Below are positions 2,395-63,662 of a stretch of DNA of 64,000 nucleotides, piece by piece; positions within the stretch are counted from its first letter, which is position 1; each line of letters starts with the position of its first letter. The stretch lies in assembly GCA_016180435.1 (NCBI GenBank), contig JACPBG010000001.1, positions 136,358 through 200,357 of the forward strand. The letters are read 5' to 3'. This stretch comes from Candidatus Sungiibacteriota bacterium. GTDB taxonomy: Bacteria > Patescibacteriota > Minisyncoccia > Sungbacterales > HO2-52-23. The translations under genes were made by a program, and so were the position numbers. Under the pieces are notes generated by a model. It worked only from the letters and a program-made list of their open reading frames with translations. It was not told the origin of the DNA and did not search any database.

Positions 2395-2415
2395 TCTATA
2401 CAAACGGTGGTTCTC

Positions 2416-2542
2416 AACAAATATGTTTAAAAATCTTCGTGAAATCCCGCCGTGATTTCACTCATCACGGGTCGGCCTCGCTCGTTCGCTTGCGCTCACA
2501 CCATGGCCGCTCGGCCTCCCAGTGTTTTTAAACATATTTGTC
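2416..2542. repeat. Structured repeat family H, copy 1, in the rpoB-rpoC spacer 22 nt upstream of the rpoC start
   Basis: Core ctcatcacgggtcggcctcgct...ggccgctcggcctcccagtg is shared with 52556-52680. It is bounded by the inverted repeat caaatatgtttaaaaa / tttttaaacatatttg. Confidence 0.6.
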
Positions 2543-2950
2543 TCGACCACCTTATTTTGATTTGCCTTATTATTTTAAATCACTATTTTAATAGTTATTT
2601 CGTGAATCTTTAGGTAGAAAATAAAAAATTATTAATAAACCACTTCACTATTGTAGCAACATTCGTCCGCCTTCGCTAAAGCTTCGGCAAGACATCGGCC
2701 TATCTTTATCTAAATAATCTCAACATTGTAACAGGCCTCGCAATAAACTATCTCCATCCTTTCCGGCGCGATTACAAAATCTTTTTTACAATTTTGGCAG
2801 TTTCGCGTTTCCATGTATTTTATCAATGGCCGCCATCGGCGGCTACATTATGCAAATCTCACTTTTTTCTTTTAAGGCGCTGAATGCTGTTTTGCGCGGT
2901 AACCGATATTTTTTGCAAAACTTTTAAGTGAGTCGGGGGAGGGACAATTT

Positions 2951-3085
2951 CGGATACAGTAATTTCAGACAATGGGAGGCAAAATTTGCTTGGTTCGTCC
3001 CGCTAAAGGCGGGACGAAAATTTTGCCGACCCTTAGCGAGGTTTTCGCAGGAAAAACCGAGACGTGTCTGAAATTACTGTATCCG
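2951..3085. repeat. Structured repeat family A, copy 1 (candidate ncRNA / REP-like element), 10 nt past the rpoB stop
   Basis: Outer 21-bp closing stem cggatacagtaatttcagaca / tgtctgaaattactgtatccg. Conserved unpaired cores AATGGGAGG and CGACCCTTAGCGA, two internal hairpins. Same architecture at 38201-38328 and 63457-63593, with compensatory stem changes. Confidence 0.65.
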
Positions 3086-3094
3086 AAAAATGTA

Positions 3095-6000
3095 TCACCG
3101 GGATACCACTTTCGCACGAGCGGCATACTGCCGACCCGGTTTTCGCTCCTCACCGGATTTCGGCGCCGGCACCTCTTTCTTTATCACGCTTACATCCAGC
3201 GCCAATCCTTTCAGCTCATTCACTAAAACATTGAACGACGCCGGAATATTCGGATTTTTAATTTTTTCGCCATTTATAATCGCCTCATACGTTGCCGAGC
3301 GCCCCAAAACATCATCCGACTTTATGGTCAATAATTCCTGCAGAGTATGGGCGGCTCCGTATCCTTCCAATGCCCAGACTTCCATTTCACCGAATCTCTG
3401 GCCTCCAAACTGCGCTTTTCCTCCCAAGGGCTGTTGAGTAATCAGGGAATATGGCCCGATGGATCGCATGTGAATTTTATCTTCCACCAAATGTATCAGC
3501 TTCATAATATATATATTGCCCACCGTGATTTTCCGGCCAAAACGCTCGCCGGTTCTTCCGTCATAAAGCGGAACTTTTCCGTCCTCGGGAAGCCCGGCTT
3601 TTTTAAGCTCGGCTTTTATCTCTTCTTCCGATGCGCCGGCCAGAGCCGGGGTCACGGCCCGATATCCCAATCTTTGAGCGGCCCAGCCAAGATGGGTCTC
3701 CAGAATTTGTCCGAGATTCATACGAGACGCGACTCCCAATGGATTTAAAATAACATCCACCGGAGTTCCATCTTCCAAATGCGGCATATCTTCCACCGGC
3801 AGAATTTTTGAAATAACACCCTTGTTGCCGTGCCGTCCGGCCAATTTATCGCCCACCGCAACTTTACGGAGCTGGGCAACTTCAACCTGCACGCGCTTGA
3901 TCACGCCGGCTTCCAGCTTGTCGCCGCGCTCGCGCGCAAATACTTTAATCCCGACTATCCGGCCCCGCTTGCCGTGCGGCAGACGCAATGACGTATCTTT
4001 GACATCGCGCGCTTTTTCCCCGAAAATCGCGCGCAATAATTTTTCTTCGGGTGTTAAATCGGATTCGCCTTTGGGCGAAATTTTTCCTACCAAAATATCG
4101 CCGGATCTTACCTCGGCCCCTATTCTTACAATCCCGTCCTCATCCAAATTTTTCAATTTTTCCTCTCCGACATTCGGAATATCATGAGTCGTGATTTCCG
4201 GACCAAGTTTAGTGTCGCGCACATCCACCGAAAAATCTTCAATATGCATCGAGGTAAACCGGTCATTTTCCAGCAGACGTTCCGAAAGAATTATGGCATC
4301 CTCATAATTCGCTCCGACCCAGGAAATAAACGCCACAAGCACATTCTGTCCAAGCGCCAATTCGCCGTCGCTAATAGAGGAACTATCGGCCAAAATATCG
4401 CCCTTCTTTACTTTATCTCCGCGATGCGCGACCGGGCGCTGTCTAATAACAGTAAAGGCATTGGTTCGCAAAAACGAAACCAGAGGATACACTTTCATTT
4501 TTCCGTTTTTATCTTTCACCCGAATTTCACGCGCGTCGGATGATTCCACAACTCCCGCATCTTCGGCGAGAATCACTCTCCCGGAATGGCGCGCCGCATC
4601 AACTTCAACTCCGGTCCCGACATATGGAGCATCGGCGCGGACACACGGCACCGATTGGCGCTGCATGTTTGAGCCCATCAACGCGCGGTTGGCATCATCA
4701 TGCTCAAGAAAAGGGATCAGGCTGGTTGCGATGCTAATTGCCTGCTGTGGAGATACATCCATATAATGAACGTCTTTTTTCTCGATAACTCCCGGGTTTC
4801 CATGTATGCGCGCCTCAATACGCCCAAGTGTGATATTTCCATCGTGATCAATATCAATGCCTGCGTGCGCGATATTAACTTTTGTCTCGAATGCCGCATC
4901 CAGATATTCAATCTCCCCGGTAATTTTGCCGTCCGTGACTTTCATATACGGAGTTAGTATAAGTCCGAGATCGCTTAAGCGCGCGTAACCGGACATATGC
5001 CCCACCAGTCCGATGTTTGGCCCTTCCGGCGTTTGAATCGGACAGATTCTTCCGTAGTGCGAAGGGTGCACATCGCGCACCTCGAATCCGGCGCGTTCTC
5101 TTTGCAGTCCCCCGGGTCCCATGGCCGAAAGACGGCGCTTGTGCTCAAGCTCGGACAACGGATTGATTTGATCCATAAATTGCGAAAGCTGGGATGAAGT
5201 GAAAAATTCCTTGACAGACGCCATAAAAGGACGCGCATTTACCAACTGAGCCGGAGTCAGTGTAACCGGATCAAATGTTGACATGCGATCCTTGACAATT
5301 CTTGCCATGCGCGCAACCCCGACCCGTAATTTATTCTGCAAAAGTTCGCCGACGCAACGCACCCGGCGATTTCCAAGATGATCAATGTCGTCTACCGCCG
5401 CGTCCGGCGCATTATTCAACCGGATTATTTCACGAAGAATCGCAGTAATTTCCTCGGCTCCAAGCACACGATCCTTGGGATCTTTTACGTTTTTTTTCAA
5501 ATCAAGGCGCTGATTCAATTTAAAACGCCCCACTTCTGCCAAGTCATATCGATCCTGTCCGAACATAGCGCGAATAAGAGAGCGCGCATTATCCACGGCC
5601 GCAAGATCCCCGGGACGTATGCGCCGGTATATTTCAATAAATGCGTCATCCGCATTTTTGGAAGAATCGCGCTCCAGGGTTTTTCGCATGTAAGATATCT
5701 CTCCGGTATCAAAATCCTTGAAAAGATTGAGTATGGCGTCATTATCAGCCACGCCAAAAATGCGAAGCAGGACCGAAGCCGGCACTTTTCGCTTGCGGTC
5801 GATTTTCACCTGAATTGCGCCGTCCGAATCTGTTTCAAATTCAAGCCAGGCCCCGCGATTCGGAATTACTTTAGCGCCGAATAGTTTTCTGCCTCGATTC
5901 AAATAAGCCGTGAAATAAACGCCGGAGGAACGTATAAGCTGGGAAACCACAACTCGCTCTACCCCGTTTACTATAAAGGTTCCGCGCGGAGTCATTAACG

Positions 6001-6334
6001 GAAAATCTCCAAGGTATACTTCTTGTTCTTTGGCCTCTTTATTTTGAGAGTTAGTCAAACGCACGCGCACGCGAAGAGGAGCTTCATACGAAAGATTATT
6101 TTCCCGGGCTTGCGCTTCCGTATATTTTGGTTCGTCCAAATAATAATCCGCGAACTCAAATGCCAAACCCTGCTCGCCAAACTCCTCTTTAATGGGGGAC
6201 GACTCCCTGAAAAGTTCTTTAAGTCCGATTTTAAAAAACCAGGCATAGGAATTAACCTGTATTTCGGCAAGATTGGGTAAAGAAATTCGTGAAGCGTGAT
6301 AGCGGGAAAAAATTTTTTTGTTTGACAAAAACAT
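3095..6334 (-). CDS. rpoB: DNA-directed RNA polymerase subunit beta
   Basis: 1079-aa ORF with RpoB signature blocks (GPGGL..[61 protein letters not shown]). It lies directly upstream of rpoC. Confidence 0.97.
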   Translation of the reverse strand: [1079 protein letters not shown]

Positions 6335-7209: not shown

Positions 7210-8946
7210 GTGGATTTCATACGACTTATCCGCAACTGGAGATTACTTAATTTCAAAAAGCTCCTCTACTTTCCGCACATTTTACATACTTCAGAGAAGC
7301 GTTTTTTTGCAGCGCTTCTCATAGTCGCACTTCTAAGCGGCGGAGCTCTTTTGGTGCGCGGATACCGGATCATCACAATCCCTGCTCCTGGCGTAGGAGG
7401 AACATTTATCGAAGGCGTATTATGGGAGCCGCGCCTGATAAATCCGCTTTACGCGTCGCAAGACACTGACCGCGATATCGCACGCCTTGTATATTCCGGA
7501 CTGCTCTCCTACTCCGGCAACGGAGAAATCATAAACGATCTTGCGGAAAAATATGACATAAGCAGTGACGGAAAAACCTATACCATAATACTCCGCGAAA
7601 ACGCCGAGTGGCATGATGGCAAAAAGGTAACTGCAGATGACATCATCTTCACCGTACACACCCTGCAAAATCCCCAGTATAAAAGCGTCTACCGCGCCAA
7701 CTGGCTTGGCGTAAATGCGGAGAAAATGGATGAGCGTACAGTCAAATTCACTTTGCGCACCGCGTATGCTCCGTTCATAGAAAATCTTACACTTGGCATA
7801 CTGCCCGAGCACATTTGGGGCGCCGTAGGGCCTGAACAAGCACTCATACATGGGGCGAATCTGAAACCAATCGGTTCCGGACCCTATAAATTCAAAGAGT
7901 TCGCCCAGGATAAAGATGGAAACATTGCCTCATACACGCTTGAAAGAAACACAGATTACTTCCTTGAGGGTCCATATCTGAAAACCATACAATTCGTATT
8001 TTTCAAAACAAGCTCCGAGATTCTCGCCGCCTGGAAACGTAAAGCGATTGATGGCTTCACAATCACGGATGAAAAAACGCTGGTAGAAATTAAAGGACGT
8101 AATGAAAACGCGTTGAGAGCCATCGCCATGCCGCGAATAGTAGGTTTATTTTTCAACGAAAAGCACTCGCCTGCGCTCGCCGATAAAAAAATTAGAACAG
8201 CTGTTGCTAAGGCGCTAGACAAAGATAAACTGTCTAAAATTCCGGCAGGCGGAGGTGTGGTGGCCAACTACCCGATTCCTTTTGGGCTGCGGGATAATGT
8301 TGGCACATCCAGCGCATCGGCATATGACCCGGACCTGGCTGCTAAACTTCTGGATGAATCGGGGTGGAAAGACAGAAATAATGACGGAGTACGCAAGAAA
8401 ACGGAACGGGCCAAAGGAAAAGAAACCGAAAAACTCCTGCAATTTACTCTTGCCACATCGGATTGGCCGGAGCTTATACTTGTCGCTGAAAAAATAAAAG
8501 AACAGCTTGGCGCCATCGGTATAGGTGTATCAATTGAAATAAAATCATTTATGGACCTTGAGGCAACTGTTATCCGCCAACGGAACTTCGACATGCTTCT
8601 TTTCGGACAAATATACGGATATGAACCGGATCCGTTCGCATTCTGGCATTCATCCCAAATAAAAGATCCGGGGCTCAATGTTGCACTCTATGCGAATAAA
8701 AAAGCGGATCTACTGCTTGAAGAAACGCGCCGGACATCTGACAAGGAGCTTCGCTCCAAAAAATTTGATGAGTTCTCCAAAATACTTTCCGCGGATATTC
8801 CGGCAATATTTCTCTATACCCAGAATTTTCTATACGTTCTGCCGTCGGATATACAAGGGGCCGAGATTAAACGTGTAGGCGTACCGGCAGACAGATTCAA
8901 TGAGATAAATAAATGGTACAAAGAGACCAAGCGAATTTTTAAATAG
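7210..8946 (+). CDS. ABC transporter substrate-binding protein, family 5 (peptide/nickel type), N-terminal membrane anchor
   Basis: 578 aa with an N-terminal TM and the overall size and composition of DppA/OppA-like solute-binding proteins; no partner permease in the window. Confidence 0.55.
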   Translation: MDFIRLIRNWRLLNFKKLLYFPHILHTSEKRFFAALLIVALLSGGALLVRGYRIITIPAPGVGGTFIEGVLWEPRLINPLYASQDTDRDIARLVYSGLLSYSGNGEIINDLAEKYDISSDGKTYTIILRENAEWHDGKKVTADDIIFTVHTLQNPQYKSVYRANWLGVNAEKMDERTVKFTLRTAYAPFIENLTLGILPEHIWGAVGPEQALIHGANLKPIGSGPYKFKEFAQDKDGNIASYTLERNTDYFLEGPYLKTIQFVFFKTSSEILAAWKRKAIDGFTITDEKTLVEIKGRNENALRAIAMPRIVGLFFNEKHSPALADKKIRTAVAKALDKDKLSKIPAGGGVVANYPIPFGLRDNVGTSSASAYDPDLAAKLLDESGWKDRNNDGVRKKTERAKGKETEKLLQFTLATSDWPELILVAEKIKEQLGAIGIGVSIEIKSFMDLEATVIRQRNFDMLLFGQIYGYEPDPFAFWHSSQIKDPGLNVALYANKKADLLLEETRRTSDKELRSKKFDEFSKILSADIPAIFLYTQNFLYVLPSDIQGAEIKRVGVPADRFNEINKWYKETKRIFK

Positions 8947-16772: not shown

Positions 16773-16816
16773 AACAGTGACAGAGATAATATAGAGATTA
16801 CATTAAGGTCTATCAA

Positions 16817-16858
16817 TGTTTTTCATTAATTCGCGATCGCGAATTAATGAAAAACATA
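16817..16858. promoter_or_regulatory. Perfect 42-nt palindrome (family F, copy 1) about 45 nt upstream of mpg
   Basis: atgtttttcattaattcgcgatcgcgaattaatgaaaaacat; near-identical copy at 43659-43693. Confidence 0.5.
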
Positions 16859-16897
16859 TAAAAATATTAAATTTCAGATTAATCAGAGTCCGGCTTG

Positions 16898-18164: not shown

Positions 18165-18239
18165 CAGCCTCACCGGGATTCGAACCCGGGTTACCAGGAT
18201 GAGAACCTGGCGTCCTAGACCAAACTAGACGATGAGGCC
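18165..18239 (-). tRNA. tRNA-Glu (anticodon CTC)
   Basis: Minus strand: GGCCTCATCGTCTAGTTTGGTCTAGGACGCCAGGTTCTCATCCTGGTAACCCGGGTTCGAATCCCGGTGAGGCTG. Anticodon stem CCAGG/CCTGG with loop TTCTCAT. Confidence 0.8.
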
Positions 18240-18270
18240 AAAAAGGTGGGAAGGTGAAAGAACCTAGTGT

Positions 18271-18349
18271 CCTAGGCCACTAGACGATAGGGGCATAAAT
18301 CGCCAGAATTTTGGAAAAATCTGGACTAGACCGGACTAGACGACAGGAG
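18271..18349 (-). repeat. Repeat family G, copy 1: tRNA-Glu-like 5' fragment (acceptor plus D-arm) plus upstream region with further D-arm-like GTCTAGT words
   Basis: Minus strand: GCCCCTATCGTCTAGTGGCCTAGG..; about 85% identical to 34318-34395. Confidence 0.55.
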
Positions 18350-18468
18350 TATAAAAAATGGGTCGGTCGGAGCCGTAACGTGTTATATCTCATCATATAC
18401 CATCATCTTACAATGAATAATGATAAATGAGGAGTTATTTTGCAGGAGGTCTATATATTCACCGGACC

Positions 18469-22250: not shown

Positions 22251-22267
22251 GATTATTGAATCCTCTC

Positions 22268-22367
22268 TAGACCTACTGCACAAAGATTTTCGTCACGAAA
22301 TTTAAGAATTTCGAGGCAAAATCGCTGAACAAACTTTGCGGCCTATCGCTTAGATAAGCCAAAAAGC
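22268..22367. repeat. MITE-like family B, copy 1 (left arm plus centre); overlaps the 3' end of the thioredoxin-like gene and provides its stop codon
   Basis: tagacctactgcacaaagattttcgtcacgaaatttaagaatttcgaggcaaaatcgctgaacaaactttgcggcctatcgcttagataagccaaaaag is near-identical to the first 100 nt of 53158-53321. Confidence 0.7.
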
Positions 22368-30512: not shown

Positions 30513-30520
30513 TCATTTAT

Positions 30521-30634
30521 TAGACCTACTACGCAAAGATTAATCTACTGCAATTTAATAATTTCGGCCAAAATCGCTTCAAAACTTTTTGGCTTATCTA
30601 AGCGATAGGCCGCAAAGTTTGTTCAGCGATTTTG
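30521..30634. repeat. MITE-like family B, copy 2 (inverted; right arm plus centre), supplies the obg stop codon
   Basis: Reverse complement matches 53207-53321. Preceded by ttattag, like the full copy. Confidence 0.7.
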
Positions 30635-34304: not shown

Positions 34305-34317
34305 TACACCAACTCCT

Positions 34318-34395
34318 CCTAGGCCACTAGACGACGGGGGCATAAATCGCCAGAATTTTGAAGAAATCGGGAATAGACCGAAATAGACGACAGGA
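34318..34395 (-). repeat. Repeat family G, copy 2 (tRNA-Glu-like 5' fragment plus upstream region)
   Basis: Minus strand: GCCCCCGTCGTCTAGTGGCCTAGGAGG; about 85% identical to 18271-18349. Confidence 0.55.
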
Positions 34396-34580
34396 ACACA
34401 AAATGTTTGATTTCTTATCTTACTACAATTCTTACTACGATATACTAAAAATAAAGCGCTTTCACAAGGAAACTTAATCACGGAATGGCTTTTTTTATTT
34501 GACAAAGCCAAAAAATAGATGTATTAAATCTGTATTAAGAGGGTTGGCTCTTTTAAAACCCAGTATGGAGGAGGCTCAAA

Positions 34581-38076: not shown

Positions 38077-38200
38077 TTTTTATCATACCTGACCCTTCGG
38101 GTCATTTTTTTATTTTTCAAAGCGCGGAGCGCTACCTTAATACAAACCGCACTCCCCACACCGAGATGCCGCAAACATCAATAAATGTATAAGGGCGAGC

Positions 38201-38328
38201 GTATCACTATTTCAAAACAATGGGAGGACAAGTTTGCATGGTTCGCCGTCTGCAGACGGCGAAAACTTGTCCGACCCTTAGCGAGTTTTTGCGCTGGCAA
38301 AAACGAGCGTGTTTTGAAATAGTGATAC
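38201..38328. repeat. Structured repeat family A, copy 2, 7 nt past the ftsI stop
   Basis: Closing stem gtatcactatttcaaaaca / tgttttgaaatagtgatac covaries relative to copies 1 and 3. Cores AATGGGAGG and CGACCCTTAGCGA are conserved. Confidence 0.65.
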
Positions 38329-38334
38329 CGAACC

Positions 38335-40062
38335 CTATTTTTCATCCGGCGGTATCTCGTAATAATTCAAAATATACTCCGCCAAATCATGAAACGCCGT
38401 AGTCAGAGTGTTAGCCGCAAAACGATTCCCCGTAGGAGAGTTAAGCTGCAAAAATACCAGAAACTTCGGATTAAACGCCGGCGCATATCCGACAAAAGAA
38501 TGAATTACTTCATCCGAATACCCCCGGCCGTCGCGACGTGGAATTTGAGCTGTGCCGGTTTTTCCTGCCACAAAATATCCTTTAACGCCTGCCCGATTTT
38601 CATATCCTATCCGCACCACGGAAATAAGCATTTTAGTCAGAGTTTCGGCGGTTTCTTTGGAAATCACCTGCCGCACTTCCTGCGGTTCCTTTTTAATTTC
38701 ATTCCCCGAATCATCCACAATTCTTTCAACAACATAAGGCCGCATCAATTTACCCTCATTAGCAATGGCGCCTGCCGCCATCGCCATCTGCAAAGGGGTT
38801 ACGGCGATTCCCTGCCCGAAAGATGCGGTGGCAAAGTCAATTTCCCGCTCCGCGGAAAGATTGGAAATATTTCCGGAGACCTCTCCCGGCAGATCAATGC
38901 CGGTTTTTTCGCCAAACCCAAATTTTTTCAAAAAAGCCCACTGCCGGTCGCGGCCCAATAACCGTGCCACGTGCACCGCCCCGGTATTTAACGATTTTTC
39001 AAGAACCTGAGTCATAGTCTGCGTTTTATAGGTTTTGCCGTCAAAATTTTTAATGGTATAACCCTTGATCTTTATCTCTCCGAAGTCATAATAGGTCGAA
39101 TCCGGACGGACCACGCCATCTTCGATACCTCCGGCCATGGTGATGGGCTTCATAACCGATCCCAATTCATACATTGATTCCGCCGCCGGATTCAAAAAAA
39201 CAGAAAAATCCTTTTCCCTTGAAAAAGCATTCGGGTCAAATGCCGGAGATGAAGCCAGCGCCAGAATTCTTCCGGTCCTCGGCTCAAGAACAATTGCCAG
39301 ACCCCGATCCGCCTCCCATTTTTTTCTATAGGCCGCGAGCACTTCTTCCGTTTTTTGCTGTATATTGTGATCCAGCGTCAAAAAAAGTTTTGATCCCTCT
39401 TTGGGCGGATGGATGATCCGGCGTCCGAGGGCCACCCAAAAACCGGCAGCATCTTTCACGCCCTCAAGCATCCCCTTGTTCCCGGCAAGGTCCGATTCGT
39501 AGTAACGCTCCAATCCGTATCGTCCTTCCTCATCCTCCTGAATCCTGCTGACAAACCCGAGTAAATGCGCAGCCATGGCGCCATACGGATAATAACGCGC
39601 CTTCCCCTCCTCAATATAAATGCCCGGCAGGCGGCGCGCCGCAATGCGCTCAGCCGATTCCCGGCTGATATTTTTTTCTAATACTTCGTAAAAGTCCCCT
39701 TTCTTCCCAAGTTTAGCGAAAATCTCTTCCTGCGGAAGCGATAAGTCCTTTCCAAGAATTTCCGCGAGTTCAGCAGGACTTGCGATGTCTTCCGGGGATG
39801 CAATAACCGCCCAAGACGATCGGCTGATTGCCAATGGTATGGAATTACCGAATTTATCGCCGGCAAAAATGGAACCCCGTTCTGCCAAAAGTTCCACAAC
39901 CTGCCGATGCTGGCGGGACGCGGATTTAACAAAATCCTTATGATCAATAATCTGCAATTGAAAAAGCCTGCCGAGAAGAGCCAGTCCTGCCGTCAAAAAA
40001 AAGAGGAGGATCCAATTCATCCGCCTCCTTATACTTGCGTCAAATTTAGGAATGCGTGGCAT
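38335..40062 (-). CDS. ftsI: Peptidoglycan D,D-transpeptidase (PBP2/FtsI class B penicillin-binding protein)
   Basis: SVMKP (SxxK), KTGTAQ (KTG) and N-terminal TM/dimerisation region; position after ftsL. Confidence 0.85.
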   Translation of the reverse strand: MPRIPKFDASIRRRMNWILLFFLTAGLALLGRLFQLQIIDHKDFVKSASRQHRQVVELLAERGSIFAGDKFGNSIPLAISRSSWAVIASPEDIASPAELAEILGKDLSLPQEEIFAKLGKKGDFYEVLEKNISRESAERIAARRLPGIYIEEGKARYYPYGAMAAHLLGFVSRIQEDEEGRYGLERYYESDLAGNKGMLEGVKDAAGFWVALGRRIIHPPKEGSKLFLTLDHNIQQKTEEVLAAYRKKWEADRGLAIVLEPRTGRILALASSPAFDPNAFSREKDFSVFLNPAAESMYELGSVMKPITMAGGIEDGVVRPDSTYYDFGEIKIKGYTIKNFDGKTYKTQTMTQVLEKSLNTGAVHVARLLGRDRQWAFLKKFGFGEKTGIDLPGEVSGNISNLSAEREIDFATASFGQGIAVTPLQMAMAAGAIANEGKLMRPYVVERIVDDSGNEIKKEPQEVRQVISKETAETLTKMLISVVRIGYENRAGVKGYFVAGKTGTAQIPRRDGRGYSDEVIHSFVGYAPAFNPKFLVFLQLNSPTGNRFAANTLTTAFHDLAEYILNYYEIPPDEK

Positions 40063-41492: not shown

Positions 41493-41927
41493 TTAATAAA
41501 GTCCCAGTTCCCCTAATTTCTCCGCTATCATATCCGCATTCTTCTCAACCTCTTTTTTATAATTTTCCCAGCGTTCCATATCCCAAATTTCCAAACGGTT
41601 CTGCACTCCGACAATCGTCACCCTTTGGGCAAGGCCCGCATATTCTTTAAGATAGTCCGGCACAAGTATCCTTCCCAACTGATCAAGTTCCACCTCAACC
41701 GCGCCGGAGAACTGCAAACGCAAAAAACTTCGCGCATCCGCCTGCCCCGTAGAAAGTTGTTCCAATTTTCCACTAACCCTCGCCCACTGTGCCATAGGAT
41801 ACAAAACCAGACAGTTGTTAAGGCCTCTTGTCAAAATCGCCTTCTCCCCGATTTCTTTGCGAAGTTTAGCCGGCACCGCAAGCCGTTTTTTGGAATCAAT
41901 ATTATGAAGGTATTCACCAATTAACAT
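41493..41927 (-). CDS. mraZ: Transcriptional regulator MraZ
   Basis: Duplicated MraZ fold, MLIGEYLHNIDSKKRLAVPAKLR..; first gene of the dcw cluster. Confidence 0.88.
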   Translation of the reverse strand: MLIGEYLHNIDSKKRLAVPAKLRKEIGEKAILTRGLNNCLVLYPMAQWARVSGKLEQLSTGQADARSFLRLQFSGAVEVELDQLGRILVPDYLKEYAGLAQRVTIVGVQNRLEIWDMERWENYKKEVEKNADMIAEKLGELGLY

Positions 41928-42195: not shown

Positions 42196-42300
42196 TTATC
42201 CCCAAAACAACTAACTTATCCACAATCTTATCCACTTTTCACCACTTCACTTATATATTATCCCACTTTGATACATTATGCAATGATGTCAACCCACTTT
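42196..42300. promoter_or_regulatory. Cluster of DnaA-box-like 9-mers (TTATCCACA, TTATCCACT, TTATCCCAC, TTATCCCCA) upstream of mraZ
   Basis: Read directly: TTATCCACA at 42216-42224 is a perfect consensus box, with three one-mismatch boxes within 100 bp. Confidence 0.45.
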
Positions 42301-43532: not shown

Positions 43533-43658
43533 AAGATCAAAACTATACCATGCATATCATGATCAAGTTTAAATTACAATATAGACCCTATCACGTCGCC
43601 ATCGAACTGGATTATATATTTTAGCAGGCCGAAAAAATTCTAAGTTAGATTTATTAAT

Positions 43659-43693
43659 GTTTTTCACTAATTCGCGATCGCGAATTAGTGAAA
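43659..43693. promoter_or_regulatory. Perfect palindrome (family F, copy 2) upstream of the saccharopine-DH-family gene
   Basis: tttttcactaattcgcgatcgcgaattagtgaaaa; same TTCGCGATCGCGAA core as 16817-16858. Confidence 0.5.
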
Positions 43694-43913
43694 ATTAATA
43701 AAAAATGGGTCCCCATGGGCAAGCCCCGTCACCAAAATTTTGACAGTTTCTGTGCCGCCCCGAATAAGCTGGCGGGATATACTCTGTATTTCTTGATATA
43801 TGTTCATCTCTCTTGGGATGGAAACGAAAGCGGCAGTCAAAATTTGGTGCGGGGCAAGCCCATGATCTTTTGGAGCATGGATAAAAATCCGCCTAAAGGC
43901 GACTACAATGAAG

Positions 43914-49652: not shown

Positions 49653-50927
49653 ATGTGGAAATTCCCTGATCCCATTGGCTGGATTCCGCCCGGAGATGCC
49701 GGACAAGCGCTTATGCGATTCATTATAGCATCGCTTAATCTGGAAGATGCGCAAAAAACAGCGCATATTTTCAGAGAAATACTAGAACCATACAAAAACA
49801 ACCTGGGATGGCATTTCAAATGCCTTATGCTTCTTGCCAAATTTTTCCCGCATGGTTTTAACGCCTTATTCCGCATCGGCACGTCGCTGTTTTTTGAAAA
49901 ACGTTTTATGGCGGCCAATGGCGATACGGGTATTGTGCTGGCTGTTTCGCGAACATCACGCCAAGGGTTAAAAACAAATTTTGATATTTTAGGAGAAGCG
50001 GTTACATCGGAAAAACAAGCCGAACGTTATGTCCAATCGTATCTTGCACTTATACGACAACTTATAACCTGTATGCCGCCGCATGAAATCAGCATATCAC
50101 TGAAACCCTCGGCATTTTATTCGCAAATTCAGGCTGCAGCGCCGGAACATTCGGCTGAAGTTATTGCCAAACGCCTGGAACCGATAATCGCCCTGCTTAA
50201 AAAAATCGGCGGACACGCCTACCTTGATGCGGAAGAATCCGAGATGCTTGAAGTGCAGAAACTGGTTTTTAAAATTCTATACCTAAAATATGGCAGCGCA
50301 GTCCGTTTCGTTCTGCAGGCCTATCTTAAATCCTCATTCCATACTCTAAAATGGCTAGTTTCCATAAATAATCCGGATGACCCCATACATTTCCGCTTGG
50401 TACGCGGAGCATATTGGGACCATGAATGTATGCGCGCCGAGCGGCTGAACTGGGATGAAACGCCGGTATATACCGATAAAGACGAAACCGATCTCATGTA
50501 TCATACGCTCATCTGGCAGGGCATGCGGCATGGACTTGTCGTGAATCTCGGAACGCACAATATCATAAGTATTGCCAACAGCATAAATTCCTATATTTCG
50601 ATGCGCGCCTGGGGTTTTGAATGCAGTATCCCGGAATTCCAAATGCTGCACGGCATGCCGGGCGTTAAAGAATTTGGCAAAATACTTTGCCAAAAAGGCT
50701 ATTCGGTTCGTATTTACAGTCCGGTCATATATCCCGAAGGCGAAACCCGCGAAGGAATGGCATATCTTGTGCGCAGAATTTTAGAAAACCAGTCCCAGAT
50801 GTCATTTCTGGTACAGCATTCCGGAACAAAAATGCGGGAAGCAGTTGGTATTTTACAAAAAATACCGGCCCGCAAAGATCTTCCGGATATAATCAAACAA
50901 ATCCGTATTCCCAAGGAGGCGGCCTAA
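49653..50927 (+). CDS. Proline dehydrogenase (PutA PRODH-domain-like)
   Basis: FAD-barrel family pattern including RLVRGAYWD (the VKGAY motif region); adjacent to P5C dehydrogenase. Confidence 0.65.
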   Translation: MWKFPDPIGWIPPGDAGQALMRFIIASLNLEDAQKTAHIFREILEPYKNNLGWHFKCLMLLAKFFPHGFNALFRIGTSLFFEKRFMAANGDTGIVLAVSRTSRQGLKTNFDILGEAVTSEKQAERYVQSYLALIRQLITCMPPHEISISLKPSAFYSQIQAAAPEHSAEVIAKRLEPIIALLKKIGGHAYLDAEESEMLEVQKLVFKILYLKYGSAVRFVLQAYLKSSFHTLKWLVSINNPDDPIHFRLVRGAYWDHECMRAERLNWDETPVYTDKDETDLMYHTLIWQGMRHGLVVNLGTHNIISIANSINSYISMRAWGFECSIPEFQMLHGMPGVKEFGKILCQKGYSVRIYSPVIYPEGETREGMAYLVRRILENQSQMSFLVQHSGTKMREAVGILQKIPARKDLPDIIKQIRIPKEAA

Positions 50928-52550
50928 ATGAATACCTTGCATGAATTCAAGAATGAACCGCACCTGGACTGGACTAATGAGGAAAACCGAAACGCCATGC
51001 GAAATGCCCTGCAACGGGTAAAAGGCGAGTTCGGAAAATCATATCTGATTATTATTGACGGAGAGTGGTCGCTTGCCAAAAAATCATTTTATTCGTTTGA
51101 TCCGGCGACCTGCAATCCGCGTATAAATCCGCATGGTTTTGATCCAACCCGCGACATAATAGGCATTGCATATACGGCTGGCCCAAATGATATTGACCGC
51201 GCAGTTAGAGTTGCTGAAAAAATAATTACGGAATGGCGCAAACTTGGCGTGGAAAAGCGCGCCGAATTGCTTTGGCGCGCCGCGCAAATCATGCGCGAAC
51301 GAAAATTTGAACTCGCCGCCTGGCTGGTTTATGAAGTGTCAAAATCCTGGGATGAGGCCATAAGCGAAGTTGAAGAAGCGATTGACTTCATTGAACTTTA
51401 TGTCCGCGAGAGTTATTTCTTTTTCGGTGAATTCCCTACGGCATCGCTCAAATCCGAAGAAAATATTCTTACAGCGGTTCCGCGCGGTCCGACTGCCGCC
51501 ATATCAACTTGGAATTTCCCGATCGCTTTGGCAGTTGAAAAAATAGCCGCATCGCTTGTTTGCGGATGTCCGGTGCTTTTCAAGCCGGCGGAACAGGCCT
51601 TTGTATGCGGATGGATGGCGGTTAAATGTTTTCTGGATGCGGGAGTGCCCCCGGAACTTATTGCTTATCTTCCGGGCGGGGATGAAGTTGGCAAAGCACT
51701 GGTAACATCCCGGGGAATCGCGCAAATCGCTTTTACTGGATCGGTTGAGGCGGGCATTGCCATAAATTTGTCCGCCGCCCAAACTCCCGGAAAATTCGGC
51801 ATCAAGGGGTTTGAACCGGAACTTGGCGGCAATAACGCCGTCATTGTTTGCCCGAGCGCCGTGCATGATTCCGCCATACGCGACATCCTGCATTCCAAAT
51901 TCGGCTTCAACGGCCAAAAATGCTCGGCACTGCAACGCCTTATTTTCGTGGGATCGCCGCTGGATTGCACGCCGCGAAAAATATGCGAAGGAGTAATTGA
52001 GGCTGCCAAATCGCTTGAATACGGGCATCCGGAAAATCCGGCTTATCGCCACACCTCTCTCATTGACAACGATGCCTATAAAAAAGTCCTTGAACGAATT
52101 GAGGCCTTGAAATGCTACGCGAATCCTTGTTATGAGCAAATGTTAAAAAAAGTTGATCGCGGGTATTTTGTAGGTCCGATTATTTTTGATAAAATTCCGC
52201 CTCATCTCGGATTTGTTCAGGAAGAAATATTCGGTCCAGTGCTTATGATTTTTTATGCTAGATCCTTGGAAGATGCGGTTTTACTTGCCAATAGCACTCC
52301 CAATGCCCTGACTGGAGGGGTTTTTACGGAGTTGGAAAGCGAGATTGAATACGCCAAACAAAATATTGATGTGGGAAATTTTTACGCCAACCGCCCTATC
52401 ACTGGGGCCATGGTCGGACGCCAGCCTTTCGGAGGATTTAAATTTTCCGGCAATGGCAAAAAAGTGGGGTGTCCGGAACGCCTGAATTTTTTTCTGAATC
52501 AAAAAACAGTGACGATCAACCGCGAGCGCTACGGCGCTTTGCTGAAGTAG
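50928..52550 (+). CDS. Aldehyde dehydrogenase family, likely 1-pyrroline-5-carboxylate dehydrogenase
   Basis: ALDH signatures ELGGNNA and FGFNGQKCSALQR (catalytic Cys); translationally coupled to the PRODH gene (stop/start overlap). Confidence 0.75.
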   Translation: MNTLHEFKNEPHLDWTNEENRNAMRNALQRVKGEFGKSYLIIIDGEWSLAKKSFYSFDPATCNPRINPHGFDPTRDIIGIAYTAGPNDIDRAVRVAEKIITEWRKLGVEKRAELLWRAAQIMRERKFELAAWLVYEVSKSWDEAISEVEEAIDFIELYVRESYFFFGEFPTASLKSEENILTAVPRGPTAAISTWNFPIALAVEKIAASLVCGCPVLFKPAEQAFVCGWMAVKCFLDAGVPPELIAYLPGGDEVGKALVTSRGIAQIAFTGSVEAGIAINLSAAQTPGKFGIKGFEPELGGNNAVIVCPSAVHDSAIRDILHSKFGFNGQKCSALQRLIFVGSPLDCTPRKICEGVIEAAKSLEYGHPENPAYRHTSLIDNDAYKKVLERIEALKCYANPCYEQMLKKVDRGYFVGPIIFDKIPPHLGFVQEEIFGPVLMIFYARSLEDAVLLANSTPNALTGGVFTELESEIEYAKQNIDVGNFYANRPITGAMVGRQPFGGFKFSGNGKKVGCPERLNFFLNQKTVTINRERYGALLK

Positions 52551-52555
52551 TCCGG

Positions 52556-52680
52556 AAACTGCTTTTAAAAATCTTCGCAAAATTCCACCGTAATTTTGCT
52601 CATCACGGGTCGGCCTCGCTCTTTCCGTTTCACGGAAAACCGTGGCCGCTCGGCCTCCCAGTGTTTTTAAAAGCAGATTT
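52556..52680. repeat. Structured repeat family H, copy 2, immediately after the ALDH stop codon
   Basis: Same core as 2416-2542; closing inverted repeat ctgcttttaaaaa / tttttaaaagcag (differs from copy 1). Confidence 0.6.
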
Positions 52681-52801
52681 CCTTCCTTAATGGATTTGCT
52701 TTAAGTTTATGCGGCATTTTCTATGCCGCATTTTTAATTTTTGCATTTGCATACACAATAAAATGTGTTATATTCAACGCAGTTCCTAAAAAAGTTAAAG
52801 A

Positions 52802-53128: not shown

Positions 53129-53156
53129 AACGCGGATTAATCGCGTTTATTTTTTA
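53127..53156 (+). terminator. Intrinsic terminator after the zinc-ribbon ORF
   Basis: aaaaCGCGGattaaTCGCGtttt then tttttt. Confidence 0.65.
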
Positions 53157-53157
53157 T

Positions 53158-53321
53158 TAGACCTACTGCACAAAGATTTTCGTCACGAAATTTCAGAATT
53201 TCGAGGCAAAATCGCTGAATAAACTTTGCGGCCTATCGGCCAAGATAAGCCAAAAAGTTTTGAAGCGATTTTGGCCGAAATTCTGAAATTGCAGTAGATT
53301 AATCTTTGCGCAGTAGGTCTA
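53158..53321. repeat. MITE-like family B, full-length palindromic copy (about 164 bp, 22-bp terminal inverted repeats)
   Basis: tagacctactgcacaaagatt ... aatctttgcgcagtaggtcta; the terminal cta provides the TAG stop of the minus-strand ORF 53319-53573. Confidence 0.7.
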
Positions 53322-54031: not shown

Positions 54032-54667
54032 TCAGAAACGTAAATTATTATTAATAAGTTTTGCAAAAGCAATTAATTGTTCACGAGTAAATTTTTCATC
54101 AGCCATTAAAGTTACGAAGAAGCGACCAGAGCTATCAGCAAACATCAAGGATCTCTCAAGATTTTTTTCTTTATCCATATAAAAGTAAAATCCTTTCTTA
54201 CCGACATCAATATTGTCTATGCTAGCGCCGCCCAATTTACCCAAAGCCTCATATGAATCGAGCATCTTAAACGCTGAGTCTGCATAAATTACGTTGGCGC
54301 TTATATTAATATTATTATTGTTTCCATATTGACAAAAAATAATTTTTTCAGTTTGAAACGCATCCATCATGGGGTCGGAAGCCAAATTTGTATTCACTAA
54401 AAATAGTTTGTTTACATCTTTTGCCGAAGCTATTTGTGAACAACTAAATTTAAAACTACTGGAACCAATTTTGTCATTCGACGGTACTTGAGTCGGCGAG
54501 GCAGAAGGCGTTGTTTTTTGTGTAAACCCTTGCGGGCCAGACGGCGTTGATCTGCTTATAGTGTTGATGGCTCTATTGTAAAAATAAAATGCGCCTCCTA
54601 TTACAATTACTGCTGCCGCAACGATCACTAGCAATGAAATATATCCGCGATTATTTGATGTTTTCAT
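54032..54667 (-). CDS. Hypothetical membrane-anchored extracellular protein
   Basis: 211 aa, N-terminal TM, Ser/Thr/Pro-rich linker; low GC. Confidence 0.4.
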   Translation of the reverse strand: MKTSNNRGYISLLVIVAAAVIVIGGAFYFYNRAINTISRSTPSGPQGFTQKTTPSASPTQVPSNDKIGSSSFKFSCSQIASAKDVNKLFLVNTNLASDPMMDAFQTEKIIFCQYGNNNNINISANVIYADSAFKMLDSYEALGKLGGASIDNIDVGKKGFYFYMDKEKNLERSLMFADSSGRFFVTLMADEKFTREQLIAFAKLINNNLRF

Positions 54668-56430
54668 TATTTTATATTTTCTTCTTGGCCAATATTAATA
54701 GTTGGCTCCACTGAGGCGTATTTTCGGATGAAATAAATATCATTCGCGTTTTGTATGGTATCTATGCCTCTGGTTTTATCATACCTGCCTCCGATATTGT
54801 AATTCAAAACTGATACGGGTGCGGTTTGATTTTTTCCAGTTCCGTCTCCAAGTTGTCCAGTTTCATTGCCGCCCCAACACTTCATTTCTCCATTCGATAA
54901 CAAAGCGCAGCTATAATTTACACCGGCCGCAATGGCAACAGCGTTAGTGATGGCAGAAGAAGAAATCTCGCCCCCTGCACTCCCGCCCCAACATTTTACT
55001 TGTCCGCTTGATAACAAGGCGCAAGTATGAAAAGATCCAACCACAACAGATGTAGCATTGGAAATGCTGCCGCCATTAAGCTGGCCGCCACCATTATCGC
55101 CCCAGCATTTAATTGTGCCACCAGTTAGCAAAGCGCAGGTATGGCTTTCGCCAGCACTTAAAGCAGATACGCCATTTAAACCAGAAACCACAACTGGCGT
55201 GGCTTCGTATTGAAGCTTTGTAGAAGCGCCTAACTGTCCGCTAGTATTCCAGCCCCAGCATTTTACGGTGGCGTTGGAAAGCAAAGCACACGTGTGGTTG
55301 CCGCGAGCTATCAGTGCTACTGCATCATCAATACCTATAACTGATATTGAGGTATTTTTAGAAACAGTTGTCCCATCGCCTAATTGACCATGACTATTTT
55401 CGCCCCAGCATTTTACAGAGCCGTTTGATAATAAAGTACAGGTGTGCTTCCAGCCAGCCGCTATTGCTATCGCATCATTTATTCCTGAAACCAAAACCGG
55501 AGAACTTTTACTTGTTCCGTAACCGTCTGTTCCTATACCTAACTGGCCATAGAGATTATACCCCCAACATTTCACGTTCCCACCGGAAAGCAATGCGCAT
55601 GTGTGTTTCCAGCCAGCGCTTACGGCCATCGCATTATTTATGCCTGACACAGCAACGGGCGTAGATTTATAATCATAAGACGCGCTTGAACCATATCCTA
55701 GCTGGCCCCAATCATTTTGGCCCCAGCATTTAACCCCACCACTCGAAAGTAAAGCGCAAGTATGTGCGCCGTTTGCAGAAATAATATTTTCCTTTTTCAA
55801 ACCAAACGCCAAAAAAGTATTTTGTCCGTTGCTTAGAAAAGATGCTGACGCGTTGCCGTAATATAAATAAATTTTGCCACTGGGCGCAGTGATAGACGGA
55901 ACTTTTACCCAAATTTTTGAATTCTCCGAGTTACATCCGGATTCCATCCAGTAATTAAGCAAAACAGTGCTGCCAAAATCAGTAAATCGCATATCGCCAC
56001 AATCTGAACGCATTTTGCCTGCAGATACAAGCGAGGCAGTATCTAAAGATATTAAAATCTGATAATTGGAAAGTGCTGTGGCAGAAGATATAGAAATTAA
56101 TTTTCTATATTGCCAATTTGGCAAAATTTTTACTGGTTCGGATTTAAGTACTGTCGGCGTTGGAGTTTGACTTGGTACTATGATTTTTGGTGTAGCAGGC
56201 CGCACAGTGGGCGTTTGAGTAGACTGGGTGAAAGGCGCTGTTACTTGCAGCTCCGTTTCCGAAGGCGCGGCCTGTTTATCTTTTGGCTCCGGAAAAGATA
56301 AAGGATTTGATGTAATCTTTTGTGAACCTGTCGGCACTGAAGAAGGATTAATGAAAATATTTAAATAAACATAAGCGCCCCCAAGTAAAACAGCGGCGAT
56401 AATTATAGAAATTATTACTAATTTAACCAT
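54667..56430 (-). CDS. RCC1-repeat (beta-propeller) surface protein with N-terminal TM anchor
   Basis: About eight repeats of the HTCALLS.G.VKCWG.N..GQLG pattern; PT-rich linker. Confidence 0.7.
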   Translation of the reverse strand: MVKLVIISIIIAAVLLGGAYVYLNIFINPSSVPTGSQKITSNPLSFPEPKDKQAAPSETELQVTAPFTQSTQTPTVRPATPKIIVPSQTPTPTVLKSEPVKILPNWQYRKLISISSATALSNYQILISLDTASLVSAGKMRSDCGDMRFTDFGSTVLLNYWMESGCNSENSKIWVKVPSITAPSGKIYLYYGNASASFLSNGQNTFLAFGLKKENIISANGAHTCALLSSGGVKCWGQNDWGQLGYGSSASYDYKSTPVAVSGINNAMAVSAGWKHTCALLSGGNVKCWGYNLYGQLGIGTDGYGTSKSSPVLVSGINDAIAIAAGWKHTCTLLSNGSVKCWGENSHGQLGDGTTVSKNTSISVIGIDDAVALIARGNHTCALLSNATVKCWGWNTSGQLGASTKLQYEATPVVVSGLNGVSALSAGESHTCALLTGGTIKCWGDNGGGQLNGGSISNATSVVVGSFHTCALLSSGQVKCWGGSAGGEISSSAITNAVAIAAGVNYSCALLSNGEMKCWGGNETGQLGDGTGKNQTAPVSVLNYNIGGRYDKTRGIDTIQNANDIYFIRKYASVEPTINIGQEENIK

Positions 56431-63296: not shown

Positions 63297-63456
63297 TTAC
63301 TATATATTTAAATCCCCACCACGTGGGGATTTAAATATATTCATACTTAACTTTTCTTCTTAAGGCGCATGCCGTGTATGAACTTACTATCAAGATAATT
63401 CGGTCGAGGCAATATGATTTTGAAACAAAAGCCCCCAGTGAGTTATTGCGGCTTCG

Positions 63457-63593
63457 TATATTGTAATTTCAGACAATGGGAGGACGCGAAAGCTTGGTCC
63501 GAGCACTCAAAAATTTTGAGTGCTCGGTTTCGCGTCCGACCCTTAGCGAATCCCGCGCTGGACGGGACGAGTCGTGTCTGAAATTACAATATA
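63457..63593. repeat. Structured repeat family A, copy 3, 70 nt past the groEL stop
   Basis: tatattgtaatttcagaca ... tgtctgaaattacaatata closing stem. Conserved AATGGGAGG and CGACCCTTAGCGA cores. Internal hairpins differ from the other copies with compensation. Confidence 0.65.
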
Positions 63594-63662
63594 CGAGAGC
63601 CGCGTAAGCGAGTAAACGTGTTTCAAAATCATGTTGCCGAGTAAACCGAATTATCAAGTCCA

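Follow-up and report, generated by a model that had tools for sequence, protein, structure and literature searches.

Sister families of branched intergenic hairpins, H and A, in a Candidatus Sungiibacteriota genome and other Candidate Phyla Radiation bacteria: candidate non-autonomous dispersed elements

What kind of element is the self-complementary repeat H, which lies in two intergenic regions of a Candidatus Sungiibacteriota genome (GenBank assembly GCA_016180435.1, contig JACPBG010000001.1), one just after the aldehyde dehydrogenase (ALDH) gene of a proline-catabolism operon and the other just ahead of rpoC? The window, the whole stretch of DNA analyzed, is 64,000 nucleotides (nt) long (positions 136,358 to 200,357 of the contig, forward strand), and coordinates are counted from its first letter. 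An earlier note had described H as a structured repeat with a covarying closing stem, showing the same pattern as a second repeat in the window, family A, from an unrelated sequence. The pattern is indeed the same, but the sequences are related: the reverse complement of H has the same architecture as A, with about 25 invariant positions in common, and one search pattern retrieves both. Judged by these shared positions, H and A are sister subfamilies of a single superfamily of Candidate Phyla Radiation (CPR) bacteria, or Patescibacteria. The explanation favored here, with a probability of roughly 0.45, is that they are non-autonomous dispersed elements resembling the REP, ERIC and Correia sequences, whose G-rich strand would be recognized in folded, single-stranded form through an invariant junction.

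The two H copies in the window (2406-2551 and 52554-52682; Table 1) have identical core blocks of 23 nt and 30 nt in common and differ in their closing stems, as was first described. The core sequences CTCATCACGGGTCGGCCTCGCT and GGCCGCTCGGCCTCCCAGTG each occur exactly twice in the window, and none are expected by chance (100 shuffles of the window). The closing inverted repeats also stand as described, but the elements are longer than was first noted, and copy 1 has an extra outer helix (GGTGGT/ACCACC). The copies align with 81% identity over about 170 columns. The differences cluster at three places, and both internal hairpins change compensatorily, for example GTGAAATC...GATTTCAC in one copy and GCAAAATT...AATTTTGC in the other. 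Each copy folds far better than its shuffles on either strand (z scores of -3.8 to -6.7), in agreement with the claim that both are self-complementary. Pfam matches confirmed the neighbors, identifying proline dehydrogenase (Pro_dh) and aldehyde dehydrogenase (Aldedh) at one site and rpoC and rpoB at the other. The distances were also close to those given: the stem of copy 2 begins 3-8 nt after the ALDH stop codon (TAG, 52548-52550), depending on where it is taken to start (6 nt in the earlier note), and the P1 stem of copy 1 is 22 nt from the rpoC start codon (ATG, 2393-2395, minus strand), with the outer helix at 10 nt.

Both copies have their cores on the plus strand, yet ALDH is encoded on the plus strand and rpoC on the minus strand, and the elements therefore have opposite polarity to their adjacent genes. 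The folding strand of copy 2, which sits 3 nt past the ALDH stop, is antisense to ALDH, while the G-rich strand of copy 1 runs the same way as rpoC, with its end 10-22 nt ahead of the ATG at 2395. Copies in opposite orientation to their genes cannot be one and the same mRNA element, and the implication that H is a single RNA element of 3' untranslated regions and 5' leaders was not borne out; both orientations are also found among 79 unique copies.

On the G-rich strand, P1 is followed by ACAA in A or AACAC in H, then by UGGGAGG, a stem arm of 8 nt and (G/C)C-N-Y-GGU. Next come the P3 hairpin, the return strand of the arm, CCGACCC, and UUAGYGA in A or GUGAUGA in H, after which the P2 hairpin (its loop is CGCNGGA in A, NCGGYGG in H), GA(R) and P1' complete the element. 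The core common to both reads UGGGAGG-N8-SCNYGGU-hairpin-CCGACCC-N5-GA-hairpin-GA, and a joint pattern built on this layout retrieved all five copies in the window and nothing else there. Searching one genome per species with a two-block H pattern brought up five further loci, four in the Parcubacteria group bacterium GW2011_GWA2_45_30 and one in a Saccharibacteria metagenome-assembled genome (MAG), all with an identical core and with P1, P2 and P3 sequences that differ but stay self-complementary. In metagenome contigs the joint pattern found at least 120 loci. Among the matches listed, de-duplication left 67 copies of A, 12 of H and 11 GC-rich matches due to chance. The true matches lie on AT-rich groundwater-type contigs, including the IMG versions of GW2011_GWA2_45_30, and single genomes may hold several copies (four H in GW2011_GWA2_45_30, five A and H in this 64-kb window). 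The core motif, whose absence from related genomes the earlier note had named as grounds for discarding the family, is thus abundant there. A phage or plasmid origin was rejected, as the joint pattern gave just two chance coding-sequence matches in the viral collection IMG/VR and blastn of H against phage and plasmid records returned nothing.

Two variants that the pattern missed indicate that the family is larger and more varied than counted. Locus L046 (~8150-8320, minus) holds an A-like copy in which the arm, elsewhere invariant, has changed in a compensatory way (UGGGAGAG...CUCGACC), and locus L030 (2835-2960) holds a truncated member that retains only the P2-J3-P1' half, after a TAAGTGAG box.

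Covariation in H was measured on a hand-specified structure, with which RNAalifold agrees, over 13 copies from the window, the Parcubacteria genome, the Saccharibacteria MAG and groundwater metagenomes; the thirteenth, a GGA-variant in L001 missed by the joint pattern, was added. Pairing was found in 97.1% of cells and double changes at 17 of the 37 pairs. None of 500 shuffles reached any of five covariation measures, and sliding the 3' partners by 1-3 columns reduced pairing to 31-51%. The closing stem covaries as claimed (10 of 17 P1 pairs), but not alone: all three variable stems do, with 7 of 8 pairs in P2, and 13 different P3 sequences in the 13 copies made up of 89 Watson-Crick pairs, one G.U and one A.C. 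The central helix of 12 pairs (CAC/GUG, GGG/CCC, GGCC/GGCC, GC/GC) is essentially invariant. In the 67 unique A copies, the 8-bp arm (Pxa) takes 30 sequences (524 Watson-Crick, 5 G.U, 3 A.C and 4 other pairs) and P3 takes 54 (425 Watson-Crick, 8 G.U, 5 A.C). Covariation extends to the pair beside the tandem G.A at the base of P2 (CGA...GAG versus UGA...GAA). In many copies GAG/GAG internal loops lead outward to another helix, usually GCGGUU/AACCGC, and some copies are nested within a second rod or have additional hairpins in P2. The unit, a hairpin of ~130-250 nt with a branched tip, is a long rod (an optional P0, then a P1 of 17-25 bp punctuated by tandem G.A) with a compact three-way-junction cap. 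The two arms of this junction, P2 and the GGGAGG/CCGACCC arm bearing P3, combine free stem sequence with junction, bulge and loop nucleotides that are fixed.

For an RNA, the stems contain remarkably few G.U pairs, which is why the non-canonical positions were examined to decide which strand folds. Tandem mismatches in P1 flanked by Watson-Crick pairs are 5'-GA/5'-GA in 24 cases and the mirror TC/TC in none. Single mismatches on the G-rich strand are G.U in 45 cases against A.C in 21, and the bias holds (16 to 7) where the G-rich strand runs antisense to the adjoining genes; as the asymmetry stays the same whichever way the host gene is read, selection at the level of the mRNA was rejected. 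Triloops are the commonest hairpin caps (C-GNA-G nine times, its mirror never), and some P2 and P3 stems are sensible on the G-rich strand only, such as GCGAGC/GCGAGC and the P3 of H copy 1 in the window, GUGAGC-GCAA-GCGAAC. The conserved fold belongs to the G-rich strand, which for H is the minus strand of the window; the strand on which the repeat was first written is its complement.

None of the ten tetraloops examined is GNRA, and none is UNCG. Given established hairpin thermodynamics, stems of Watson-Crick pairs only, tandem G.A and GNA triloops would be more typical of very stable DNA hairpins, a kind exemplified by mini-hairpins of the d(GCGAAGC) type, than of structured RNAs. These features, together with a conserved helical core with fixed bulges of the sort typical of protein recognition, would also suit a non-mobile chromosomal DNA site, for instance a cruciform or a hairpin of one strand to which a host protein of recombination, replication or the nucleoid binds. 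Such a site seems very unlikely as the explanation, as near-identical units lie at unrelated junctions, their presence varies at orthologous sites, and a tight relation to codon boundaries and gene direction is unexpected of a replication or nucleoid site.

The elements occupy minimal spacers between housekeeping genes in either orientation, are gained, lost and replaced at orthologous sites, show nesting, and conserve the fold of the G-rich strand. The 95 non-redundant open reading frames (ORFs) flanking them are ordinary by Pfam (penicillin-binding proteins (PBPs), MreB, ClpP, SufB, EF-Tu, S19, L4 and RRF, for example), and no transposase, recombinase or reverse transcriptase was among the 25 most frequent of the 96 Pfam families matched. 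Between co-directional genes 24 copies are antisense and 13 sense, and another 11 copies lie between convergent and 3 between divergent genes, counts that take in copies flagged as within a called ORF. The 3' end of the G-rich strand is within a few nt of the gene boundary for 28 of 35 stop-facing and 10 of 21 start-facing neighbors, while the opposite end usually leaves a spacer of 16-30 nt or ~100 nt.

Comparison of the same junction in different loci showed extensive turnover, although at a flank identity of 70-90% filled and empty sites are too diverged to define the junctions. Between tuf and rpsJ, L038 carries an H element and L081 a plain hairpin of 13 bp; between rpsK and rpsD, L040 carries an A element and L078 a spacer of 36 nt. 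One further junction measures 12 nt in L081 and holds a 200-nt A element in L035. The site before rpoC has H in the window and A in L104 and L027, the site after rpoB has A in the window and a different long hairpin in L104, and the mraZ leader is 39 nt in the window and ~400 nt, with a nested A element, in L114. A unit of ~290 nt, consisting of a companion module and an A rod, was found in copies ~93% identical at four different gene junctions, where it takes up exactly the space between the stop codon and the next start codon; judging by its N-terminal residues, one of the four genes downstream is apparently serS. In GW2011_GWA2_45_30, two H copies are 92% alike with unlike flanks, and a third has the same P1 and P3 with a wholly different P2. 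Such gain, loss, replacement and dispersal is how a dispersed and recombining repeat family, probably a mobile one, behaves.

The same placement could be read as that of a host cis-acting RNA element, intercistronic or in untranslated regions, acting as a processing site (for RNase III, for example), 3'-end stabilizer, attenuator or insulator, or in translational coupling, with the conserved junction binding a host RNA-binding protein. Elements exactly between the stop and start codons of co-transcribed housekeeping genes, their rarity between divergent genes (3 of ~47), the different element types found at the same junctions in different lineages and the near-perfect duplex of at least 20 bp formed by P1 and P0 all agree with this. 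So do two terminator-like features, namely UUUUU after a GC-rich arm on the C-rich strand of H, and P2 with GAAGAUUUUU, which is flagged on the G-rich strand. However, the elements occur in both orientations within mRNAs, about two-thirds of them placing the less stable C-rich strand in the mRNA, and even there the pair asymmetry favors the G-rich strand, the opposite of what selection on the mRNA would produce. Related genomes lack the element at the same junctions and have spacers of 12-39 nt instead. As for termination, the U-run is paired in P1 and missing from subfamily A, and copies are found within operons; moreover, a distinct canonical terminator comes after H copy 2, so that H is not needed to end the ALDH transcript and is not simply the ALDH terminator. 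A host cis-acting role is on balance unlikely.

Twelve copies have a companion module, which consists of a GC hairpin (often with a C-GNA-G triloop), TAC(A/C)(A/T)T, AAGAA, 5-10 nt and TAAG(C/T)GAG. All cases lie to the 5' side on the G-rich strand, 45-62 nt ahead of the core (111 nt in two nested copies), at loci that include L012, L014, L023, L027, L048, L052, L054, L057, L093, L094 and L123; weaker forms are present in the window at 52690-52745 and 2556-2600 (both minus). The module could be a promoter, with TAC(A/C)(A/T)T resembling a -10 box, a processing signal or a further mosaic piece.

A promoter there would suit an independently transcribed, multi-copy structured non-coding RNA read from the G-rich strand, possibly a new class of self-cleaving ribozyme or the partner of a dedicated protein. 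Consistent with such an RNA, the module is never on the other strand, the folding strand is fixed whatever the neighbors, spacers cluster around 100 nt on the 5' side, with genes directly adjoining the 3' side, and the combination of ~25 invariant junction and loop positions with freely covarying stems is a ribozyme or aptamer signature. The core of the hammerhead ribozyme is CUGAUGA...GAAA in a three-way junction, and H comes near to it, with (G/C)UGAUGA-stem-GAA in a three-way junction, tandem G.A extending that stem, many copies and covarying stems. Unlike the hammerhead, C3 is G in 12 of the 13 H copies (GUGAUGA; CUGAUGA in one), the 15.1-16.1 A-U pair and the UH cleavage site are not in register, G follows GAA, and the P1 register leaves CAC/GA unpaired, with no A-U pair and H17. 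Subfamily A has UUAGYGA rather than a hammerhead-like heptamer, the Rfam hammerhead and other ribozyme models gave no match even at E<=10, and the hammerhead was rejected. More generally, an independent RNA seems quite unlikely, as many copies have only 0-27 nt on the 5' side, in ribosomal-protein operons with no room for a promoter, and as G.U pairs are very rare and GNRA and UNCG tetraloops absent. It is conceivable, though doubtful, that the A/H junction (UGGGAGG, the YGGU bulge, CCGACCC, NUNANGA-hairpin-GAR and the G-rich loops) represents a new CPR-specific class of functional nucleic acid, either an active (e.g. self-cleaving) RNA or the folded-strand module of an undiscovered mobilization or processing system acting on the G-rich strand irrespective of host transcription.

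If H and A are non-autonomous dispersed elements, the unit would propagate, or be acted on, as a folded single strand, more likely single-stranded DNA (ssDNA) than RNA, because the stems are almost purely Watson-Crick and the loops favor C-GNA-G triloops over GNRA or UNCG tetraloops. The invariant junction would be the recognition site of a putative trans-acting protein. An inserted element would be co-transcribed with its neighbors, as the positions inside the conserved operons tuf-rpsJ and rpsK-rpsD suggest, and would be tolerated since the rod holds the upstream stop and downstream start codons close; it may secondarily affect mRNA ends.

The closest functional analogues of H and A would be ERIC/IRU, REP/BIME and Correia elements. 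ERIC/IRU sequences are imperfect palindromes of ~130 nt that form a long rod and lie in transcribed intergenic regions in either orientation, often right after stop codons; longer forms have internal insertions, and the sequence is conserved across genera and encodes no protein. A and H resemble them in size, rod fold, intergenic location, presence in both orientations and lack of coding capacity, being intergenic palindromes of ~130-250 nt whose presence varies at orthologous sites. A small ORF in the element was rejected, as the AUG in ACAAUGGGAGG has no conserved frame after it and H lacks that AUG. In contrast to A and H, whose stems are free and only the three-way-junction core fixed, ERIC copies have a common stem sequence; their hosts are Enterobacteria and Vibrio rather than CPR bacteria, no sequence similarity was found, and the TA duplication was not seen. 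REP/BIME and REPIN sequences likewise are high-copy extragenic palindromes at gene 3' ends, built of mosaic modules and presumed to be recognized as folded single strands by a trans-acting enzyme, but REPs are simple hairpins of 20-40 nt with a conserved stem and a GTAG/CT signature, near-identical within a genome, whereas A and H are 130-250 nt with a branched tip and stems that vary within one genome. Membership in REP/REPIN was rejected for these differences in length, branching and stem variation, together with the lack of a RAYT-like ORF in a weak test over ~1 Mb. The Correia (CREE/NEMIS) elements of Neisseria and the RUP and BOX elements are also non-autonomous, 100-160 nt long, co-transcribed, modular and located beside housekeeping genes, and the hairpin RNA of Correia and other MITEs is processed. 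MITEs have conserved terminal inverted repeats and target-site duplications; in A and H the termini are the most variable part and the center is conserved, the P1/P0 arms differing with 10 of 17 P1 pairs covarying, and this assignment was set aside.

Several observations weigh against mobile elements of this kind. No target-site duplication, conserved terminal inverted repeat or mobilizing enzyme was found, and tblastn detected no Y1/HUH transposase in the window and ~1 Mb of loci, a weak test with IS608 TnpA and RAYT-like queries. The flanking CGAG...CGAG of many copies forms a C-G/G.A/A.G/G-C helix and is absent in others (e.g. L040); it is better explained as structural tandem G.A than as a duplication. 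Selfish insertion alone does not explain tight abutment at one end of the element in 28 of 35 cases and at the other in 6 of 23, and the repeated occupation of the same junctions (upstream of rpoC, downstream of rpoB, tuf-rpsJ) by one or another hairpin element fits host function as well as insertion hot spots. Copies were fetched by the core pattern, so that the invariance of the core is partly an ascertainment effect, although positions outside the search pattern are conserved as well. None of the four readings, whether dispersed element, cis-acting RNA, independent RNA or DNA site, accounts for the same physical end always abutting genes, or for a G-rich fold antisense to the host mRNA in about two-thirds of the copies.

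Comparison with known RNA families gave no assignment for H, in Rfam or among described REP/BIME classes. An Rfam scan of the whole window at the gathering threshold found only four tRNAs, and scans at E<=10 of both H copies, eight A loci and the CUGAUGA variant gave scattered sub-threshold matches, none recurring on the element. No score came near the gathering threshold of any Rfam 15 family, hammerhead, twister, pistol, hatchet, retron msr, SRP and riboswitches included. The Ec86 retron msr contains ACCCUUAGCGAG, and this likeness to subfamily A was taken as coincidence: the motif and the closing stem are differently placed with respect to each other, the neighborhood contains no reverse transcriptase, and no match to the msr model of Rfam was obtained. 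A likeness to the Alu domain of the signal recognition particle (SRP) RNA (GGGAGGC-GAG) was also discarded, as there was no Rfam SRP match and the element is multi-copy. Box C/D kink-turn RNAs and TIGR-Tas systems resemble H in that GUGAUGA is the box C consensus, and in tandem sheared G.A and CPR hosts. TIGR units are tandem arrays beside Nop-domain tas genes, each unit with two unpaired spacers of 8-12 nt that box C/D motifs flank, in CPR bacteria and phages (PMC12045711). A and H, in contrast, are dispersed singletons near housekeeping genes (PBP, MreB, ClpP, EF-Tu, ribosomal proteins) in which every variable part is base-paired, and a TIGR-Tas array was rejected. The idea that the stems are guide-RNA spacers was also dropped, as no viral contig matched either of two P1 arms (21-22 nt) that were compared.

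CPR genomes are small and compact and are thought to be poor in repeats and mobile DNA, yet this 64-kb window holds five A/H elements and more than 100 metagenome contigs carry them, including in ribosomal-protein and RNA-polymerase operons. The family is widespread in CPR bacteria and apparently undescribed; literature on CPR, Patescibacteria, Saccharibacteria or Parcubacteria repeats, MITEs, REPs and structured RNAs yielded no description, which is not proof of novelty. It shows an unusual pairing of REP/ERIC-type genomic behavior with ribozyme- or aptamer-like conservation, in which the branched core is the same in Parcubacteria and Saccharibacteria and the stems covary freely. The reader of the invariant core, once known, would point either to mobility by a new mechanism or to a new level of control at gene boundaries, in a very large and uncultivated part of bacterial diversity. 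The exact ALDH protein of the window occurs only in Logan assemblies of runs SRR12113383-429, and its elements and their flanks put the window with the Parcubacteria-like CPR bacteria. The elements could also serve as markers of CPR contigs, and be a source of assembly breaks.

Table 1. Positions of the H and A elements, their parts and neighboring features in the window
Feature	Position	Strand	Details
H copy 1	2406..2551	-	P0 2406-2411/2546-2551; P1 2417-2433/2525-2541; P2 2440-2462
H copy 1 closing inverted repeat	2417-2433/2525-2541		ACAAATATGTTTAAAAA/TTTTTAAACATATTTGT
H copy 1 internal loop next to P0			CTCG/TCTCA; G.A-type on minus strand
H copy 1 P3	~2484-2499	-	GUGAGC-GCAA-GCGAAC; contains tandem G.A
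H copy 2	52554..52682	- (G-rich folding strand)	P1 on + strand 52554-52571/52664-52682
H copy 2 closing inverted repeat	52554-52571/52664-52682		GGAAACTGCTTTTAAAAA/TTTTTAAAAGCAGATTTCC
H copy 2 P2 hairpin	52577-52599	+ strand reading	loop CCACCGT
H copy 2 core CTCATCACGGGTCGGCCTCGCTC	52599-52621	+ strand reading	
H copy 2 P3 hairpin	52622-52638	+ strand reading	
H copy 2 core ACCGTGGCCGCTCGGCCTCCCAGTG	52639-52663	+ strand reading	
Core block CTCATCACGGGTCGGCCTCGCT	2461-2482 and 52599-52620	+	
Core block GGCCGCTCGGCCTCCCAGTG	2505-2524 and 52644-52663	+	
A copy 1	2949..3087	+	TGGGAGG 2973-2979 ... CCGACCCTTAGCGA ... 3039; 7 nt from rpoB stop (3095-3097, minus strand), antisense to rpoB
A copy 2	38196..38333	+	abuts stop of PBP gene, 38335-38337, minus strand
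A copy 3	63399..63657	+	inner element 63453-63597, nested in a second, outer long hairpin with A-like P1 arms; adjoins 3' end of groEL (minus)
rpoC	2-2395	-	Pfam
rpoB	3095-6334	-	Pfam
Proline dehydrogenase (Pro_dh) and aldehyde dehydrogenase (Aldedh)	49653-52550	+	Pfam
Canonical intrinsic terminator	52709..52741	+	9-bp stem and T-run; ~27 nt downstream of H copy 2

Long imperfect intergenic hairpins without the A/H core, with GAG/CGAG loops, were seen in L023 (2354-2700, the same locus as L084) and in L104 (~2850-2950), the latter being the hairpin at the site after rpoB. Rods punctuated by tandem G.A may be spread more widely through CPR intergenic DNA than the A/H superfamily is.

The 700-nt spacer between rpoB and rpoC also contains, at ~2710-2815 (minus), a 34-residue ORF encoding a CxxC...CxxC zinc ribbon (METRNCQNCKKDFVIAPERMEIVYCEACYNVEII), which explains the unusual length of the spacer. 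Its orthologue in L104 begins identically but is then interrupted or extended by ~230 nt, after which comes the C-terminal ...EIVYCEACYN common to both. Three direct TTATCC(C/A)C(A/T) boxes at 42196-42236 (+), upstream of mraZ (41493-41927, minus), are part of a block conserved with L114. By Pfam, the genes around them are mraZ, one resembling saccharopine dehydrogenase and one for a class II aminoacyl-tRNA synthetase, and the boxes are accordingly more likely an MraZ operator or promoter region than DnaA boxes of an origin. An argument from replication-strand bias was abandoned, as the TTATCCACA boxes there are unlikely to be oriC.

Three other repeats were observed in the window. A near-perfect 42-nt palindrome (ATGTTTTTCATTAATTCGCGATCGCGAATTAATGAAAAACAT), unrelated in sequence to A and H, has two copies (16806-16865 and 43647-43706) with a stem of 14-19 bp and z scores of about -5 to -7. 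A repeat of ~80 nt with a small hairpin (TAGACCTACTGCACAAAGATTTTCGTCACGAAATTT.AGAATTTCGAGGCAAAATCGCTGAA...) lies at 22263-22348, 30516-30566 and 53153-53238; two of its copies are 98% identical, and one is just past the terminator of a 108-residue ORF downstream of H copy 2. A pair of 87-nt direct repeats, 87% identical (TCCTAGGCCACTAGACGA...GGACTAGACGACAGGAG...; 18270-18356 and 34317-34403), is not obviously structured (z score of -0.4), and its first copy adjoins a tRNA gene at 18165-18239. Finally, a seven-copy periodic DNA repeat of 65 nt at 54851-55764 is explained by the seven RCC1 repeats of a 587-residue protein, which also has a DUF2341 domain (54667-56430, minus).

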